From the NCBI GenBank assembly GCA_004347965.1, contig QNVF01000001.1, forward strand, positions 43,724 through 107,723: a stretch of 64,000 bases of DNA. Reading direction: 5' to 3'. Shown piece after piece: positions 11,864-57,190 of the stretch; the first letter of the stretch is position 1; every line of letters starts with the position of its first letter. Made by a program: the position numbers and the translations under genes. Below the pieces are notes generated by a model, which was not told where the DNA came from, did no database searches, and saw only the letters and a list, made by a program, of their open reading frames with translations. This stretch comes from Candidatus Nezhaarchaeota archaeon WYZ-LMO8. GTDB taxonomy: Archaea > Thermoproteota > Methanomethylicia > Nezhaarchaeales > WYZ-LMO8.

Positions 11864-13177
11864 ATGAAGGGTATAGCTAGAGGGAATGGTATGCCTTGTT
11901 GTAGGTCTGCGATAACCAAGGTTCAGGGTGCGGTCATCGCCATCATCGCCATCATTATTGTTGCAGCTTTGGTTTCAGGCATATATTACTATTATACGAG
12001 CATCCCGACACCAACGCCTCCTCCACCAGAGAAGATCAAAATTGGGATGATAGCCTCCCTCTCCGGCGGTCTAGCAACTGTTGGGCGTTTGCAGAAAATA
12101 ACAATAGAAGAGGCGGTCAAGATGATAAACAGCGAGGGAGGAGTATTCCTAAAACAGTATCAGGCTAAGGTACCAATAGAACTAATCATATACGACGACG
12201 AAAGTAACCCGGCAAGGGCAACAGAACTCGCCGGACGCCTAGCAGCCGAAGGAGTCGTCGCAGTAATCTGCTGCAGCTACGCTCACATAGTTACCCCAGC
12301 AGCAAAAGTCACAGAACGATACGGCATTCCCTTACTAAACGGAGGAACTCCAATAGAATTTGTTGCGGCGGCAGGTCCATGGAACTATACATGGAGCTAC
12401 GGCATGTCGTACAAAAAAATCATAGATGACTTCTTAGCCTTCTTAGAAGGCTATAAAAACAGAACAAACATGAAATTTGCCGTCATATTATCTGATGATA
12501 TTATTGGGCGGACACAGAAAACACTGCTTGTTCCTGAACTTGAAAAGAGAGGGTACTCAGCCTTTGTTCCGGATCTCTATCCACCAGGAACAACTGATTT
12601 TACTGCATTAATAACGAAAATGAAGGAGGAGAAGTGCGAAATACTTTGGATGCATGGTACTGCACCTACATTTGCTACCTTCTGGCGTCAATGTCTCGCA
12701 TTGGGATACAAGCCTAAGATAATTTATCAGTCTGGAGGTTTAGCGCGACTAGAAGAGGTACAAGCTTTAGGTGGGGATCTGGCATTGGGCGTAATAACAT
12801 TCTTATGCTGGCATTATGATTATCCATTTCCAATGAGCAAAACATTTAGAGAGATATGGACAAAATACCTAGTTGAGAAGAACATAGACCTCTCACCGGT
12901 AGCAGCCTACTACTTTACAGTCCCATTCATACTAAAGGATGCGCTCGAGAGAGCCGGTAGCCTAGACAGAGAAGCACTCAACAAAGCTATAGGAGAAACA
13001 AAAATGATTGGAGCACCAGGACCAGTATCATTTGACTCAGTAACCCACGTAGGGACAGGCTACATGTGCTTAGGACAATGGATGAAAACAGAATACGGCA
13101 CATGGATCCTCCAACCAATATGGTCAAAAGAAGTACCAGAAGTAAAAACAGTAGAACCAATATTCCCACTTCCATAA
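11864..13177 (+). CDS. Substrate-binding protein, type I periplasmic-binding fold (LivK-like), with an N-terminal TM anchor and Thr/Pro linker
   Basis: N-terminal hydrophobic helix, TPTPPPPEK linker, then a PBP1-like domain. Last gene of the ABC operon. Confidence 0.75.
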   Translation: MKGIARGNGMPCCRSAITKVQGAVIAIIAIIIVAALVSGIYYYYTSIPTPTPPPPEKIKIGMIASLSGGLATVGRLQKITIEEAVKMINSEGGVFLKQYQAKVPIELIIYDDESNPARATELAGRLAAEGVVAVICCSYAHIVTPAAKVTERYGIPLLNGGTPIEFVAAAGPWNYTWSYGMSYKKIIDDFLAFLEGYKNRTNMKFAVILSDDIIGRTQKTLLVPELEKRGYSAFVPDLYPPGTTDFTALITKMKEEKCEILWMHGTAPTFATFWRQCLALGYKPKIIYQSGGLARLEEVQALGGDLALGVITFLCWHYDYPFPMSKTFREIWTKYLVEKNIDLSPVAAYYFTVPFILKDALERAGSLDREALNKAIGETKMIGAPGPVSFDSVTHVGTGYMCLGQWMKTEYGTWILQPIWSKEVPEVKTVEPIFPLP

Positions 13178-21604: not shown

Positions 21605-22009
21605 TCTCACTTAAGCATATGCTTTAAAGCACTTACTTCTTTTGATCATTTTGATTTTAAAATAACCAAAGCCTATGTTTGAAAATATAGCATTATACTA
21701 GTCTACTAGTTATACTCCTTAGAGCTTGATGAGATCATAGTAATACCAGGACTATGCTAGTAATATCTTATAATCGGTTATTTTGTGAAGGAGGTTAAAA
21801 GTTAAAAATCATGAGCCGATTCTATTTAGATCTCTATTTTGAACTAAATGCCAGCTTTAAGGGTCACTGATAGGGCTTTTAAGCTTTAAATACTGTTATA
21901 ATTTGATAAACTTTTACAAAGTGAAGAGCTTCTGCAGGGCAATGGATGACGCATGCAGGAAGTAAACCTCTTTCCATTCTATGTATATATTGCGCACAAA
22001 GTATGCTCT

Positions 22010-22236
22010 CTTAGCGATGTCTTCTCATGGTTAAATGCTATTGCTGCAAAGGGGCATTTTTAATATAAGCTTTGCAACCGATGCATAGTTCCGGGTTTAT
22101 GTACGATCCCATTATCACGTTTTATTACAGCATTTGTTGGACATACTTTAGCGTAGGATGGATTACCACAACGCTTACACATAACGGGGATATAATTAAT
22201 GGTTAGTCGCTCACTGATATTGTAAGGTCTCTTCTC
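22010..22236 (-). pseudogene. Remnant of a 4Fe-4S ferredoxin-type iron-sulfur subunit of a molybdopterin oxidoreductase (DmsB/PsrB/FdhB-like), disrupted by a frameshift and stops
   Basis: Minus-strand translation gives ...IEVIEKRPYNISERLTINYIPVMCKRCGNPSYAKVCPTNAVIKRDNGIVHKPGT, then (+1 frame) LCIGCKAYIKNAPLQQ*. This follows the C-x2-C-x7-CP / GIV-x-C-IGC pattern of beta subunits. Stops flank it and no ORF of 60 aa or more survives in the 1.2-kb region. Confidence 0.45.
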
Positions 22237-22625
22237 AATAACCTCAATTCATTTAGGGCCAACCAGTTTTCTAATAATCATCTTCAATCCATGCTTAGTC
22301 CACTCCCTACGAGCTACCTGTTAATCTAGGCGATAGCGCACTTAATACCATGCCTAGTTGCATTAGCCGGATCAAAAGTAGCGTGCCGGAGGATCTTGCA
22401 TAGGTAGTTTGCGTGCTTCAGAACTCTCGCTGAAGATAGACTTAAACTCTCAAGGTGATTGATGAAGCCGAGTAGGAGCTGCTGTGAGACAGCTCTCTAA
22501 GCTTAATTCTAGGCTCTCTCAAGACTCTCAGCACATTATGGATATCCGCTTTTCACATTAAACCCTATACCTGAGACTTAAAAGGAAGAGACTATGTGTA
22601 GTACCCCCAGGACTAGGGGTACTGA

Positions 22626-22744
22626 TGCCGGGGGCGGGATTTTCGGGGTTTAACCCATTCGAACCCGCGATAACCGGACTCCATCTCTGGCCTCCCCTTT
22701 AGAGATTATGAGTCCGGCGCCCTAGGCCCCTAGGCGACCCCGGC
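22626..22744 (-). tRNA. tRNA(CAU), elongator Met or Ile2, with two introns: 27 nt at 38/39 (22679-22705) and 18 nt in the T-loop at 59/60 (22640-22657)
   Basis: Minus-strand RNA reads GCCGGGG-UC-GCCU-AGGGGCCUA-GGGC-G-CCGGA-CUCAUAA-[27-nt insert]-UCCGG-UUAUC-GCGGG-UUCGAA-[18-nt insert]-U-CCCGC-CCCCGGC-A. Acceptor, D, anticodon and T stems pair once the inserts are removed. The T-loop insert forms a canonical BHB (UUCG:CGAA 4-bp helix flanked by AAU bulges, inner GGGU:ACCC). No CCA encoded. Confidence 0.75.
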
Positions 22745-22791
22745 ACCTATTTTGCTTAGTCTTCTCAACCCCTTTAAAGTTTATCTAGCAA

Positions 22792-23496
22792 TCAACTATT
22801 AGTTAAGACCTCTAAGCCATCGGGTCTCCCAACGTAGACCACGTCAGCAATACCACAGAACAAGCCCACCTCAACTACACCAGGTATCCTTTTTATCTTT
22901 GATTCAAGCTCATGTGGATCATCTAGTGGCTTGAAGTGCACATCGATTATGAAGTTACCGTTGTCCGTTATGAGTGGCCCGTCCTTAAATCTTCCAGCTT
23001 CTCTAAGTTCAGGTTCTCCTCCAAGCTCCCTAAGCTTCTTCATTACGTAGTTGTAGGCGAAGGGTAGAACCTCGATTGGCACTGGCTTTGTTGAACAAAG
23101 TTTGTCGACGACCTTATCGTAACTAACTATGTAAACTCTTCTCAAAGCCATGTAGGCAACGACTTTTTCTCTAGCTAGAGCAGCTCCTCTTCCTTTAATC
23201 ATGTTAAGTTTTCGATCAACCTCATCGGCTCCATCAACTACTAGATCCACCTTATCCACAGTCTCTATCGGTAGGACTTCGAAGCCATACTTTAGAGCCA
23301 TCTGAATTGAGTGATACGACGTAGGGACTACCTTGATTCTCAAACCCTTTTTGATTTCGCTACTTAAAAGCTCTGCAAAGCGCTCCACGGTGGAGCCAGT
23401 CCCAAGTCCCAATACCATTTCATTTAACACTTCAGCCAAAGCGGCTCTAGCTGCTATTTCCTTACATTCCTCAATACTCAATTTTTTAACACCCAA
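22792..23496 (-). CDS. rpiA: Ribose-5-phosphate isomerase A
   Basis: GLGTGST phosphate-binding motif, DGADEVD, and typical ~230 aa length. Confidence 0.85.
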   Translation of the reverse strand: MGVKKLSIEECKEIAARAALAEVLNEMVLGLGTGSTVERFAELLSSEIKKGLRIKVVPTSYHSIQMALKYGFEVLPIETVDKVDLVVDGADEVDRKLNMIKGRGAALAREKVVAYMALRRVYIVSYDKVVDKLCSTKPVPIEVLPFAYNYVMKKLRELGGEPELREAGRFKDGPLITDNGNFIIDVHFKPLDDPHELESKIKRIPGVVEVGLFCGIADVVYVGRPDGLEVLTNS

Positions 23497-27162: not shown

Positions 27163-27419
27163 ACTAAAAATTATTGTCCTGTAGTTCACAACTCAAATCG
27201 AATGAGGTGCGTCTTTGGGGTTGTTCTATCTAACTAATAGTACCTAAAATAAAAAACGCTTGAATATGCAATACCATTATTCATTTAATAACTTAGTGGA
27301 GAATCCTCGTTTTGTCATCTAGCCTATACTCGAAAGTGTCAAAGTGATGTCATGATGAAGTCACGTATGTCGATCTAGACTTAAAATAGGAGGTATAAGA
27401 AGCTTGAACTCGAAGAGAC

Positions 27420-27509
27420 TGGAGCCCCGGGCGGGATTTGAACCCGCGACCCCTGCCTATTTGTCCAGAATACCAAGGCAGTGCTCTAACCAGACTGAGC
27501 TACCGGGGC
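27420..27509 (-). tRNA. tRNA-Thr(GGU) with a 12-nt anticodon-loop intron; CCA encoded
   Basis: GCCCCGG-UA-GCUC-AGUCUGGUUA-GAGC-A-CUGCC-UUGGUA-[UUCUGGACAAAU]-A-GGCAG-GGGUC-GCGGG-UUCAAAU-CCCGC-CCGGGGC-U-CCA. Confidence 0.9.
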
Positions 27510-31987: not shown

Positions 31988-32091
31988 TGGCGCCGGGAGC
32001 GGGATTCGAACCCGCGCGGCCCAGAGGGCCACAGGCTTAGTGGGGTATACATCCTCTCCAGGCCTGCCCCCTACCACTAGGGTATCCCGGC
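31988..32091 (-). tRNA. tRNA-Ser(GGA) with a long variable arm and an ~18-nt intron in the anticodon-loop region; CCA encoded
   Basis: GCCGGGA-UA-CCCU-AGUGGUA-GGGG-G-CAGGC-CUGGAGA-[~18 nt]-GCCUG-U-GGCCCUCUGGGCC-GC-GCGGG-UUCGAAU-CCCGC-UCCCGGC-G-CCA. The exact splice junction (37/38 to 39/40) is ambiguous by eye. Confidence 0.8.
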
Positions 32092-52232: not shown

Positions 52233-52901
52233 CTAAATTGTTCTTCTAGCACCGCAATGAGGACATATGGTCTCTGTTTGTGGAAATAGTGTTCCACAGT
52301 ATTTGCATGGAACCATAACTACTTCACGGATAACCTCCCTCTCCTTTACAACTGGAGTGGTTACTGGCTGGGCAACTTGTATCTCAAGTGTCGGACTCAC
52401 AGCATCTGGCCTACCTTTAATTGCCACGACACCCTTAATCGTCCACGTAACCCTTCTATCTAATCCCTTCGAGGTTGGCTTCATGGTTACTGGAATTGGA
52501 ATACTGAAGGGAAAAGTGCTTGAAAAACCTTGTGAAATATGTATAGGCCCACTAAGACTTGGGTTCGCGGAGTATAGTGTGGTAGATTCCCAAACCTCCC
52601 TGAAAACCTCCCTCTTTAGGGCATGGTCATAGAACCGCTTTTGAACCTTAGCGGACTCAACACAACGTATCTCGCATCTAACGTCTTCTGCGTCAAAGTC
52701 TTCATAAGAAATTACAGTGAGCTCTCCTTTAATATCATCACCGAGATAAAAAACACTTCCACTAAGATTTAACTTTAAACTGACTTTTGGAGGTGTAACC
52801 TTCTCAGCCAGCTTCTTCAGAAACGACAATATCGATCCTCCAACATCCTCTACTGTAAAGAATTTAAACTTAAAATATTTTACGACTCGAAAAAGAGTCA
52901 A
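52233..52901 (-). CDS. Arrestin-like/Spo0M-like beta-sandwich protein with a C-terminal zinc ribbon
   Basis: N-terminal SLKLNLSGSVFYLGDDIKGELTVISYEDFDAEDVRCEIRCVE pattern resembles Spo0M/arrestin-N domains. C-terminal CKYCGTLFPQTETICPHCG ribbon. Confidence 0.45.
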   Translation of the reverse strand: MTLFRVVKYFKFKFFTVEDVGGSILSFLKKLAEKVTPPKVSLKLNLSGSVFYLGDDIKGELTVISYEDFDAEDVRCEIRCVESAKVQKRFYDHALKREVFREVWESTTLYSANPSLSGPIHISQGFSSTFPFSIPIPVTMKPTSKGLDRRVTWTIKGVVAIKGRPDAVSPTLEIQVAQPVTTPVVKEREVIREVVMVPCKYCGTLFPQTETICPHCGARRTI

Positions 52902-53930: not shown

Positions 53931-54218
53931 TCACGAAGCTGATCCTCCCAGCATTAGCACTAAAGAGATCAATATTACAAGCATGACTAGAGCAGCTGTC
54001 ATTAATCCGCCATAATTCCTCCTCTTAGCCTCCTCCATAGCTATGAAGACGACGCTCGCGAGAGGTGTAAGCGCCAATACAAGCGTCGCGAAGAGCGCCG
54101 CTAAGTCCTTCAATAACCTATTCTCGAGGAGACTTAGCACGAAGCTTAAGGCGAAAGCAATTAAGCTGATCGCTAACCCTATGGTGAATAATTTCTTTAA
54201 TGCATTGTAAACCATCAA
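53931..54218 (-). CDS. Small membrane protein (3 TM)
   Basis: 95-aa hydrophobic ORF upstream of the TauE/SafE gene. No recognised family. Confidence 0.35.
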   Translation of the reverse strand: MMVYNALKKLFTIGLAISLIAFALSFVLSLLENRLLKDLAALFATLVLALTPLASVVFIAMEEAKRRNYGGLMTAALVMLVILISLVLMLGGSAS

Positions 54219-55298: not shown

Positions 55299-56528
55299 AT
55301 GGTGGAGGTAAGTCTATCTAAGTGCCCTAAGAAGTACTTCGTGGGTACTCATCGAGCTCTTGAACCGGAAGATACCCTGAGGCTCATAGAGCCGAAGATC
55401 AAGACTATAGGTGTAACTCGAATCTCCGACATAACTGGATTGGATAGAGTAGGAATTCCGATATACTCGTGTGTAAGGCCGAGAGCGGCTGAAGGAGCTG
55501 TCTCTGTGTATTCAGGTAAGGGTATCACGGATACGTTAGCGAAGATCTCTGCGATTATGGAGGCAATTGAAAGGTACTCAGCTGAAGTGAGCCCTCAGGA
55601 CGAAAGTGTGATGGTAAAGGGATCGTACAGAGAACTGTCATCGAAATACTCTGTTTTAGACCCTACAACCCTAATACTCCCAAACTTATCGTCATACGAT
55701 AGATCCTCGATACTGAGGTGGATTAGGGGGCATGACCTAGTTCAAAGAGAAGATGTTTTAGTGCCAGTTAGCGCAGTCTTTCATCCTTATAGCCCTAAAG
55801 ATGATCTACACTTATTTAGAACCAGCACAAACGGTCTTGCATCGGGCAATACTATTGAAGAGGCAGTGCTTCACGGATTGATGGAGGTAATAGAGAGAGA
55901 TGCGTGGAGCATAGCTGAGCTGTCTAGAAATGGTGGCAAGATAATTGAGACCCCGATGAAGTACAAGCTGGTTCGAGAGTTAATGGAGAAGTTTGAGAAA
56001 GCATCAATCGAAGTATACCTACGAGATATAACGTCAGATATAGGGATACCGACCATTGCTGCTGTCTCAGATGATACTCTATTAAGGGATCCAGCCCTCC
56101 TAACAATAGGGTTCGGCACCCACTTAGACCCAGAGATAGCAGCTATAAGAGCACTACTTGAAGTTGCTCAAAGCAGGCTTGTTCAAATTCAAGGAGCAAG
56201 AGAGGATACTCATAGAGCTAGCCTAATGAGAATGATGGGTTACGATAGAATAAAGCGTATCAATAAACATTGGTTCTCCAAGTCTGATGAGATCGTGAAG
56301 TTGAGTGAATTACCCTACTTAGCTAAGGACGACATACTCGATGAAATATTGTTCGTTATAGATGTCTTGAGGAGAAGGGGCTTTGATAGGGTTGTAGTGG
56401 TTAATTTAACAAGACCTGAGGTTTCAATTCCGACGGTTAAGGTTGTGGTTCCAGGACTTGAAGTCTATGCTATAGATCAAGATAGGGTAGGTCCGAGGGG
56501 TAGAGCATGCTTGAGAAGCAGAAGATAG
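55299..56528 (+). CDS. ycaO: YcaO-domain protein (ATP-dependent peptide backbone-modifying enzyme; TfuA-associated type)
   Basis: YcaO ATP-binding region pattern and ~400 aa length. Immediately followed by tfuA with a 22-nt overlap. Confidence 0.8.
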   Translation: MVEVSLSKCPKKYFVGTHRALEPEDTLRLIEPKIKTIGVTRISDITGLDRVGIPIYSCVRPRAAEGAVSVYSGKGITDTLAKISAIMEAIERYSAEVSPQDESVMVKGSYRELSSKYSVLDPTTLILPNLSSYDRSSILRWIRGHDLVQREDVLVPVSAVFHPYSPKDDLHLFRTSTNGLASGNTIEEAVLHGLMEVIERDAWSIAELSRNGGKIIETPMKYKLVRELMEKFEKASIEVYLRDITSDIGIPTIAAVSDDTLLRDPALLTIGFGTHLDPEIAAIRALLEVAQSRLVQIQGAREDTHRASLMRMMGYDRIKRINKHWFSKSDEIVKLSELPYLAKDDILDEILFVIDVLRRRGFDRVVVVNLTRPEVSIPTVKVVVPGLEVYAIDQDRVGPRGRACLRSRR

Positions 56529-57190
56529 TGGTTTTTACGGGGCCTAGCTTAAGACATAAAGAAGCACGCATTATATTTGAGCATGCAATCTACATGCCTC
56601 CAATAAAGCGTGGAGATGCAACAAAAGCTTTTGAGAGCGGGGCCAAGATCATAGGCGTAATAGACGGAGTCTTTTTTCAAGACGTTGCCGTCTCACCCAA
56701 AGAACTGCTAAACCTCCTTGATAGGGGAGCGATAATAGTTGGAGGTGGAAGCATTGGAGCTCTTAGAGCCGCTGAATTAGACGAGTTTGGCATGATAGGT
56801 GTGGGTGAGGTATACCGTATGTACAAAAGGGGGGAAGTATTCTCTGATGACGAGGTCGCGTTAATATTTGACCCATACACCTTTGAGCCTCTATCGGAGC
56901 CATTGATCAACATACGCTACAACGTGAAGAGACTTGCAAATGATGGCCTCATAGATTACGTGATAGCAGAGAAGCTAATTCAAATAGCTAAAAGCCTCCA
57001 TTACTCTGAAAGAAGTTACGAGAAGGTTTTAGCAGAAGCTCTGAGACAAGGTATTTTGAGCCTCATGGAACATGATCGCCTAGTTCGCCTAATCCTAGAG
57101 CGAAGAATCGACTTAAAGAGACTTGACGCTATAGAAGTGCTAAAGAAAATAGCAGAACTAGCGTATGTTCACATAAAATCTCCACCTTAA
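56507..57190 (+). CDS. tfuA: TfuA-like protein
   Basis: N-terminal VVFTGPSL motif typical of TfuA. About 225 aa. Overlaps the ycaO stop. Confidence 0.75.
   Translation: MLEKQKIVVFTGPSLRHKEARIIFEHAIYMPPIKRGDATKAFESGAKIIGVIDGVFFQDVAVSPKELLNLLDRGAIIVGGGSIGALRAAELDEFGMIGVGEVYRMYKRGEVFSDDEVALIFDPYTFEPLSEPLINIRYNVKRLANDGLIDYVIAEKLIQIAKSLHYSERSYEKVLAEALRQGILSLMEHDRLVRLILERRIDLKRLDAIEVLKKIAELAYVHIKSPP

Follow-up and report, generated by a model that had tools for sequence, protein, structure and literature searches.

A tRNA(CAU) gene with two predicted BHB-type introns, most likely for elongator tRNA-Met, in a Nezhaarchaeota-type archaeon

Introduction

Does a GC-rich block of 119 nt, set in a genome of ~42% GC and left without a call by two widely used RNA annotation tools, encode a working transfer RNA (tRNA)? 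The block occupies positions 22626-22744, on the minus strand, of a 64,000-nucleotide stretch of contig QNVF01000001.1; this whole stretch is referred to as the window. An original prediction, made from the sequence letters, had read it as a tRNA with anticodon CAU that is split by two inserts, one in the T loop and one in the anticodon loop. Our analysis supports, with a probability of about 0.9, a functional single-copy archaeal tRNA(CAU) gene, most likely for elongator tRNA-Met, that is interrupted by two introns of the bulge-helix-bulge (BHB) type, which would be spliced by proteins. The answer involves the spliced product, the conservation of exons and introns, the exact splice positions and the identity of both the tRNA and its host.

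Results

Read from 5' to 3' on the minus strand, the pre-tRNA consists of three exons and two inserts in the order GCCGGGGTCGCCTAGGGGCCTAGGGCGCCGGACTCATAA, TCTCTAAAGGGGAGGCCAGAGATGGAG, TCCGGTTATCGCGGGTTCGAA, TGGGTTAAACCCCGAAAA and TCCCGCCCCCGGCA. Exon 1 (22706-22744, positions 1-38 of the tRNA) provides the 5' strand of the acceptor stem, the D arm, the 5' strand of the anticodon stem and the loop CUCAUAA, in which the anticodon CAU lies at 22708-22710. Intron 1 (22679-22705, 27 nt, UCUCUAAAGGGGAGGCCAGAGAUGGAG) falls between positions 38 and 39, and is followed by exon 2 (22658-22678, positions 39-59), which holds the 3' strand of the anticodon stem, the variable loop UUAUC, the 5' strand of the T stem and the T-loop bases UUCGAA. 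Intron 2 (22640-22657, 18 nt, UGGGUUAAACCCCGAAAA) separates positions 59 and 60, and exon 3 (22626-22639, positions 60-73) ends the gene with U60, the 3' strands of the T and acceptor stems and the discriminator A73. Once both inserts are removed, ARAGORN draws the 74-nt sequence as a perfect cloverleaf, tRNA(cat), that has G1:C72, A73 and all stems paired (acceptor, 7 bp; D, 4 bp; anticodon, 5 bp with a 7-nt loop; T, 5 bp with a 7-nt loop). The complete minus-strand tRNA that had been proposed is therefore found, at the same coordinates. Direct reading of the spliced sequence also identified the nucleotides of the tertiary structure, namely U8, A14, G18G19, G15:C48, U33, A37 and A38, together with U54-U55-C56, A58 and G53:C61. 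The unspliced 119-mer has a minimum-free-energy fold of -61.2 kcal/mol (z = -3.3).

On the unspliced gene, ARAGORN makes no call, whether its intron option is on or off, and the Rfam tRNA model gives no match, either at the gathering threshold or at E<=10. The same tools detect five other tRNAs in the window. We attribute this silence on the raw region to blindness of the tools and not to absence of a gene. The fit of the spliced product to the tRNA covariance model was examined through an orthologue (L088; loci are cited by our L numbers) that has exons identical to those of the window and lacks the T-loop intron. On the Rfam tRNA model (RF00005), whose gathering threshold is 29 bits, this orthologue reaches 52.9 bits (E = 4e-9), with its anticodon intron counted as an insertion, and a second locus without T-loop intron, L083, scores 54.0 bits. 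By these scores the spliced product fits a tRNA covariance model, as the check set by the original prediction demanded. The statement that standard scanners would miss the gene holds for ARAGORN and for the Rfam model, and thus for some tools only, since the archaeal mode of tRNAscan-SE 2.0 looks for multiple non-canonical introns as its default (PMC8450103).

To place the gene among its relatives, we searched 185,579 species genomes for an insert-bearing anticodon arm, which yielded 96 loci, all of them archaeal, and a metagenome scan for exon 1 added 14 further loci. Six independent assemblies, among them two NCBI metagenome-assembled genomes (MAGs) and a Jinze hot-spring sediment metagenome, carry the 250-nt region without a single difference. 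We aligned 15 distinct orthologous sequences that share the exons of the window. The exons show 99.6% pairwise identity, with 2 variable columns among 74, whereas intron 1 (18 variable of 29 columns) and intron 2 (13 of 21) fall to 75.6% and 66%, respectively. The switch from invariant to variable occurs exactly at the junctions: after A38, where intron 1 begins (i1), between the last intron base (b2) and U39, between A59 and the first base of intron 2 (t1), and between its last base (t18) and U60. Exon 1 is invariant among these sequences apart from one G/A change in the D stem.

This pattern bears on whether the block is a gene that no longer works, namely a tRNA pseudogene in decay that contains insertions, or part of some other structured RNA. 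Such a reading would account for the lack of a call by ARAGORN and Rfam on the unspliced gene, and a decayed gene remnant does exist in the adjacent non-coding stretch. However, purifying selection on the exons is strong compared with that on the introns, the inserts retain their BHB geometry, and the promoter motif and the synteny with the RpiA gene, both described below, are conserved. Regarding other RNA families, Rfam at E<=10 returned over the region only one snoRNA match of 14 bits, at chance level. We consider a non-working gene very improbable.

The 18-nt insert at 59/60 had been described as part of an ideal BHB, and the minimum-free-energy structure of the T arm is precisely this strict motif. 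It contains an outer helix GCGGG:CCCGC, a central helix of U54-G57 (UUCG) with CGAA, two AAU bulges and an inner helix GGGU:ACCC. This is the strict hBHBh' form, with two 3-nt bulges on opposite strands around a 4-bp helix and with both outer and inner helices. The endonuclease EndA cleaves after the second bulge nucleotide and before the third (PMC4307357), and this rule, applied to the T arm, puts the cuts after A59 and before U60, joining UUCGAA to U60CCCGC with a normal 7-nt loop UUCGAAU. The geometry is that of the 37/38 intron moved to the other arm with a 5-bp stem and a 7-nt loop. For a pattern describing the T-loop intron, the expected number of matches per window is 0.02; one match was observed, at this gene. 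Among the orthologues, 13 distinct sequences have the strict motif in spite of the variable sequence and length of the intron loop. The four pairs of the central helix are kept in 13/13 of these intron-bearing sequences, where the partner of U54 is A in 11 and G in 2, a change from U-A to U.G. L083 and L088, from Nezhaarchaeales/Nezhaarchaeota MAGs, are without this intron. Position 59/60 is one of the usual non-canonical intron sites (PMC4090602), and introns at this site were cut in vitro in tRNA-Cys and tRNA-Pro of ARMAN-2 (PMC3239211).

Other loci also have inserts of this kind. The tRNA(CAU) genes of L025 and L038 have the T-loop sequence UUCAAA and, at 59/60, an intron of 14 nt whose last four bases are UGAA or UGGA; their A57:U, as opposed to G57:C in the window, is a compensatory change between exon and intron in the central helix. 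Additionally, second matches to the T-loop-intron pattern were found a few hundred bases from tRNA(CAU) in L079 (1824-1865, minus strand) and L097 (1519-1560, plus strand), and are probably other tRNA genes of Bathyarchaeia with 59/60 introns. The same tRNA(CAU) carries three introns in total in L012 and L063, two Bathyarchaeota-type MAGs (a D-arm insert plus anticodon-loop and T-loop introns), and a D-arm insert plus an anticodon-loop intron in L075 and L093. L052 and L043 have an additional insert in the anticodon loop, on its 5' side.

The anticodon-loop insert is less regular. It had been classified as a relaxed hBH variant, and the helices and the 38/39 site proposed for it stand; the label does not, since the hBH type is the one without inner helix (PMC3239211) and here the inner helix is intact, which makes the motif HBh'-like. 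The central helix U33-U36:AUGG, the 5' bulge A37-A38-U and the inner helix CUCU:AGAG can all form. The HBh' half is present, as the 4-bp central helix is followed by a 3-nt bulge on the 5' strand and by the inner helix. At the 3' site, two unpaired intron nucleotides (AG) precede U39, with an unpaired C32 opposite, and a clean 3' bulge forms only if the A31-U39 pair opens; the motif of intron 1 is therefore relaxed and not strict. According to the fold, the BHB structures of the anticodon and T arms sit in separate arms and could form simultaneously.

Is 38/39 the right splice position? By far the most frequent intron site is the canonical 37/38 (PMC8450103), the insert is formally removable in three frames, and splicing at 37/38, or at 36/37, would leave a mature loop CUCAUAG and make 38/39 wrong. 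Moreover, the experimental intron borders of Sulfolobus tokodaii tRNA-Met(CAU-1) differed from the predicted ones (PMC4307357). Comparison across all loci divides the inserts in two classes. In the canonical class, the 3' end of the intron reads UG(A/G)G plus two nucleotides, followed by A38 and UCCGG, and all genes have A at position 38. Introns of the shifted class end in (A/G)UG(A/G) plus two nucleotides that lead directly into UCCGG, and the base before UCCGG can be G, A, U or C; because it varies, this base behaves as part of the intron. The shifted class comprises the window gene, the Nezhaarchaeales clade, three Culexmicrobium MAGs, one Methanomethylicota MAG and Korarchaeia-like MAGs. 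The two nucleotides that precede U39 vary (AG/AA/AU/AC/CC) and the exons do not. When the window is read as a canonical intron, the central helix keeps 1/4 pairs and position 38 becomes variable among otherwise invariant exons, with G, A, U or C in close relatives, as opposed to the constant A of clean canonical genes; read as 38/39, A38 is constant. In the 36/37 frame, position 37 of L088 would be C, and a G38 facing C32 would, from general tRNA knowledge, close the anticodon loop. We regard splicing at 37/38 or 36/37 as improbable, even though energy folding does not favour the 38/39 register.

Additional support for 38/39 comes from 23 distinct genes of the shifted register. Their U33-U36 central helix is paired in 89/92 cells; 13 genes have G opposite U33, and 7 have A. 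In the inner helix, 13 cells carry compensatory changes (CG/GC, UA/CG and CG/AU/GC), a count reached in 0/500 shuffles. This comparison favours the 38/39 splice with the U33-U36 register, and it is to be taken as supportive and not decisive because the set was partly picked by its fit to the shifted register, which introduces some circularity. Besides this circularity, other observations also weigh against our account. Intron 1 lacks a clean 3-nt bulge at its 3' site, which needs either a cut at a helix junction or the opening of A31-U39. The minimum-free-energy fold and the RNAalifold structure of the close clade choose C32-G, U33-A and C34-G with an AUA bulge, and for the window sequence this register is ~5-6 kcal/mol better at 37 °C; the 38/39 assignment is made because of the comparative evidence, and energy folding alone favours a different register. 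Within the close clade no double-sided compensatory changes occur in the tRNA or central helices, since the exons there are invariant. Also, a Pfam scan of 30 open reading frames (ORFs) in the window found neither EndA nor RtcB.

Two other structures for the anticodon arm were considered. The energy-preferred register was discarded as the splicing fold: it lacks two-bulge geometry and would give no usable product, and its C34 pair fails in 10/23 genes. A hairpin internal to intron 1 (CUCN...N'GAG) has a fourth pair that shows several pair types but 6/15 mismatches, and it competes with the inner helix.

When canonical and shifted introns are aligned, they share the same layout. This alignment suggests that the 38/39 intron could be a derivative of an ancestral canonical 37/38 intron that slid by one nucleotide, its first A being recruited as A38. 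A wider proposal, which we put forward tentatively and at slightly less than even odds, is that 38/39 introns may form a conserved class of their own, slid from an ancient canonical intron and present in Nezhaarchaeota, Culexarchaeia-type archaea (Culexmicrobium), some Methanomethylicota and Korarchaeia-like MAGs, with the T-loop intron gained later in one subclade of Nezhaarchaeales. Such a class would have its 3' cut in an internal loop, 1x2 or 2x3 in size, overlapping the A31-U39 pair. The endonucleases of these lineages would, in that case, accept a 3' geometry outside the strict and HBh'/hBH forms described.

Which tRNA does the gene encode? Archaeal initiator tRNA-Met has A1:U72 and three consecutive G:C pairs at the base of the anticodon stem. 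Neither feature appears here: the gene has G1:C72 and the anticodon stem CCGGA:UCCGG, and is not an initiator. The earlier reduction of the possibilities to elongator Met or Ile2, drawn from CAU together with G1:C72, is upheld by the spliced sequence, where both features are read. The gene is a member of a tRNA family with a GCCGGGG-type acceptor stem and the arm CCGGA-CUCAUAA-UCCGG, which occurs in nearly every genome matched. This family spans Thermoproteota, Thermoplasmata and Micrarchaeota, usually with one member per genome and with an intron at or adjoining the canonical site, and we take it to be the archaeal elongator tRNA-Met. That the gene encodes elongator tRNA-Met is, in our estimation, probable.

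The same gene with the same introns could instead specify tRNA-Ile2, in which C34 would be modified to agmatidine by TiaS to read AUA. The CAU anticodon, G1:C72, A73, A37 and A38 fit either identity, and ARAGORN and Rfam find no other CAU tRNA within the 64 kb of the window for comparison. Against Ile2 stand the distribution of the family, its once-per-genome count and its intron position, which match archaeal elongator tRNA-Met, and the acceptor stem of Ile2 usually resembles that of tRNA-Ile(GAU). ARAGORN, run on 31 loci, reported neither an Ile tRNA nor a second CAU tRNA. Separating Met from Ile2 needs isotype-specific models (PMC8450103); we judge Ile2 unlikely. A 'Met' call by ARAGORN in L038 was set aside as a misread intron-containing tRNA-Val(CAC).

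Regarding the host, multiple introns at non-canonical positions had been taken as a sign of a Thermoproteales-type archaeon. This proved too specific, as multi-intron tRNAs are also present in Thaumarchaeota, Korarchaeum and ARMAN (PMC8450103, PMC3239211) and the nearest relatives of the gene are Nezhaarchaeales/Nezhaarchaeota, within Thermoproteati. That the host is an archaeon is confirmed by archaeal ribosomal proteins, SecY and Cbf5, all of them encoded in the window. Directly upstream of tRNA(CAU) lies the gene for ribose-5-phosphate isomerase A (RpiA; 22792-23496, minus strand). The nearest relatives, defined by identical exons, RpiA synteny and 67-79% RpiA identity, are Candidatus Nezhaarchaeales/Nezhaarchaeota MAGs and hot-spring MAGs: RpiA is 78-79% identical in L037, L077, L083 and L085 and 67% in L088, where L077 and L083 are Candidatus Nezhaarchaeales and L088 is Candidatus Nezhaarchaeota. 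Identity is 35-59% in loci of Methanomethylicia, Bathyarchaeia and Methanodesulfokora. The NCBI taxonomy treats Nezhaarchaeota as a phylum of its own within the kingdom Thermoproteati. The exons and RpiA of the relatives, together with this taxonomy, indicate a Nezhaarchaeota-type hot-spring archaeon and not a member of Thermoproteales.

The RpiA-tRNA(CAU) pairing was found in L012, L017, L022-L026, L032, L035, L037, L045, L047, L054, L055, L077-L079, L083, L085, L088, L095 and L097. It is an unusually deep pairing, extending over Nezhaarchaeales, Methanomethylicia, Bathyarchaeia and Methanodesulfokora.

The flanks of the gene suggest how it may be expressed. The sequence CTTTAAAG (22772-22779, minus strand), at -35 to -28 from tRNA position 1 and preceded by the A-rich AGATAAA, is likely a TATA box, as judged from its sequence; the motif AAGCTTTAAAGG occurs at the same upstream distance in every orthologue of the clade. 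Downstream, CCA is not encoded, and TCA (22623-22625, minus strand) follows A73. CCA is encoded after the discriminator in 11/14 of the other distinct orthologues and in the neighbouring tRNA-Thr and tRNA-Ser genes. Two nucleotides past A73 begins a trailer hairpin, AGUACCCCUA GUCC UGGGGGUACU (22600-22623, minus strand), with 10 bp, a GUCC tetraloop and -16 kcal/mol. The window has no second copy of it, and no orthologue has it in the 3' flank; candidate roles are trailer structure, terminator helper or remnant. About 10 nt past the hairpin lies the pyrimidine tract CUCUUCCUUUUAAG (22577-22590, minus strand), a candidate archaeal terminator with a T4 run at 22580-22583. A scan for bacterial-type promoters and terminators, of a type not applicable to archaea, found nothing.

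Observation covers the anatomy of the sequence, how it folds, how it is conserved and how it scores on the covariance model; the enzymatic steps that follow are deduced from established knowledge. Transcription would start from the TATA-type promoter ~30 nt upstream, and the precursor would fold into a BHB structure at each pair of intron-exon junctions. In the T arm, U54-G57 would pair with intron CGAA between AAU bulges, with the T stem as outer helix and GGG(U):(A)CCC as inner helix. In the anticodon arm, U33-U36 would pair with intron AUGG, next to the 5' bulge A37-A38-U and the inner CUCU:AGAG. EndA would cut between the second and third bulge nucleotides, and the 3' cut of intron 1 would fall after the AG that precedes U39, in a small internal loop. 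Given this relaxed 3' site, an endonuclease of broad specificity, of the (alpha-beta)2 or epsilon2 kind, would be needed (PMC3239211); such EndA enzymes have been described (PMC4307357, PMC3239211). An RtcB-type ligase would join the three exons, RNase P and RNase Z would trim the ends, and CCA would have to be added, because it is not encoded, to the 74-nt tRNA with loop CUCAUAA.

Other features of the window were also recorded. Downstream of the tRNA, a gene-free gap of ~1.2 kb (21605-22625) contains at 21879-22300 (minus strand) frameshifted, stop-interrupted remnants of a 4Fe-4S ferredoxin-type (DmsB-like) protein. The remnant peptides CKRCGNPSYAKVCPTNAV, NPELCIGCKA and PACVIHCPAEAL lie in different frames and were judged by their cysteine motifs only; the remnants look like a decaying pseudogene. 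A tRNA-Thr(GGU) gene at 27423-27509 (minus strand; Rfam, 61 bits) has a 12-nt canonical intron. The overlapping 'tRNA-Leu(caa)' of ARAGORN (27389-27475, minus strand) seems to be a mis-call, and in related loci ARAGORN labels the same gene 'tRNA-???' or 'Tyr'. Directly downstream of the Cbf5 (TruB/PUA) gene, tRNA-Ser(GGA) at 31991-32091 (minus strand; Rfam, 52 bits; missed by ARAGORN) has a long variable arm and a 21-nt canonical intron. With tRNA(CAU), tRNA-Thr and tRNA-Ser, 3/6 tRNA genes of the window bear introns. A scan of GC-rich islands for more hidden RNAs found only the known tRNAs and two stretches in long ORFs (12199-12278 and 54050-54102).

Two protein-coding genes also deserve mention. 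The gene for a TfuA-like protein (56507-57190, plus strand; Pfam E = 6e-42) begins within a 409-aa ORF (55299-56528, plus strand), at whose end the two overlap. YcaO-TfuA pairs are responsible for thioamide formation, including that of methyl-coenzyme M reductase, and the gene would fit a lineage related to methanogenic Nezhaarchaeota. Pfam also matches a 222-aa ORF (52233-52901, minus strand), if weakly, to the arrestin N-terminal domain (E = 1e-6, 29 bits, cut-off 24.9), unusual in an archaeon.

Discussion

The practical consequence of these findings concerns annotation. With ARAGORN or general Rfam searches, an essential CAU tRNA would be wrongly scored as missing from Nezhaarchaeota-type MAGs, and their apparent completeness would be lowered. 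Our literature search found no paper linking Nezhaarchaeota with tRNA introns. With this gene, the range of multi-intron tRNA genes, here with a textbook T-loop BHB, would extend to a hot-spring lineage that has been little studied and is methanogenic in part. Furthermore, the orthologue set offers a natural series for the study of sliding and gain of tRNA introns, as it includes members with and without the T-loop intron, canonical and shifted registers, and lineages with three introns. The current understanding of archaeal tRNA splicing is left unchanged.

Several known systems resemble this gene. The 59/60 introns of ARMAN-2 are the closest match for intron 2, as both are T-loop insertions whose BHB is built from T-loop nucleotides and the 3' end of the intron. 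They differ in tRNA identity, in lineage (Micrarchaeota-related as opposed to Nezhaarchaeota-related) and in the place of the second intron, which is in the T arm there and in the anticodon loop here. Also, the ARMAN-2 introns were cut in vitro, whereas the splice sites of the window gene are predicted from sequence.

In Crenarchaeota and Thaumarchaeota, tRNA genes that contain as many as three introns are familiar (PMC4033280, PMC8450103). For Thermoproteales and other Crenarchaeota, the accessible text of PMC4090602 and PMC4033280 gives three introns per tRNA gene at most, at 20/21, 22/23, 25/26, 29/30, 30/31, 45/46, 53/54, 56/57, 59/60 and other sites. As far as that text goes, 38/39 is not in the review list, and an earlier description in primary surveys is possible. 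The multi-intron genes of Thermoproteales share with the window gene several short BHB introns, a mixture of strict and relaxed motifs and the requirement for an endonuclease of broad specificity; the host of the window gene lies outside Thermoproteales.

The most informative comparison for intron 1 is with the canonical 37/38 intron in the same tRNA(CAU) of Candidatus Methanodesulfokora (L032, L035), Methanomethylicus (L073, L086), Thermofilaceae (L028) and Thermoplasmata (L010). These genes have RpiA as a neighbour in several lineages and the same layout, with 5' UCUC..., central GAGG/GGGC and 3' ...GAUGRG. Their central helix, however, involves C32-A35, and their 3' bulge ends in the exonic A38. 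The window gene appears displaced by one nucleotide in the 3' direction, with the helix at U33-U36, the former first intron base serving as A38 and the cut right before U39.

Finally, the S. tokodaii pre-tRNA-Met(CAU-1) also has anticodon CAU and an imperfect BHB in its anticodon arm; there the flanking helices play a part, and such borders need experiment in addition to prediction (PMC4307357). It comes from another organism, its intron sequence is different, and its borders were established with recombinant EndA (PMC4307357), whereas those of the window gene come from comparison. Multi-intron tRNAs and 59/60 introns are already known from these systems, and the gene described here is a well-conserved, ordinary example of them.

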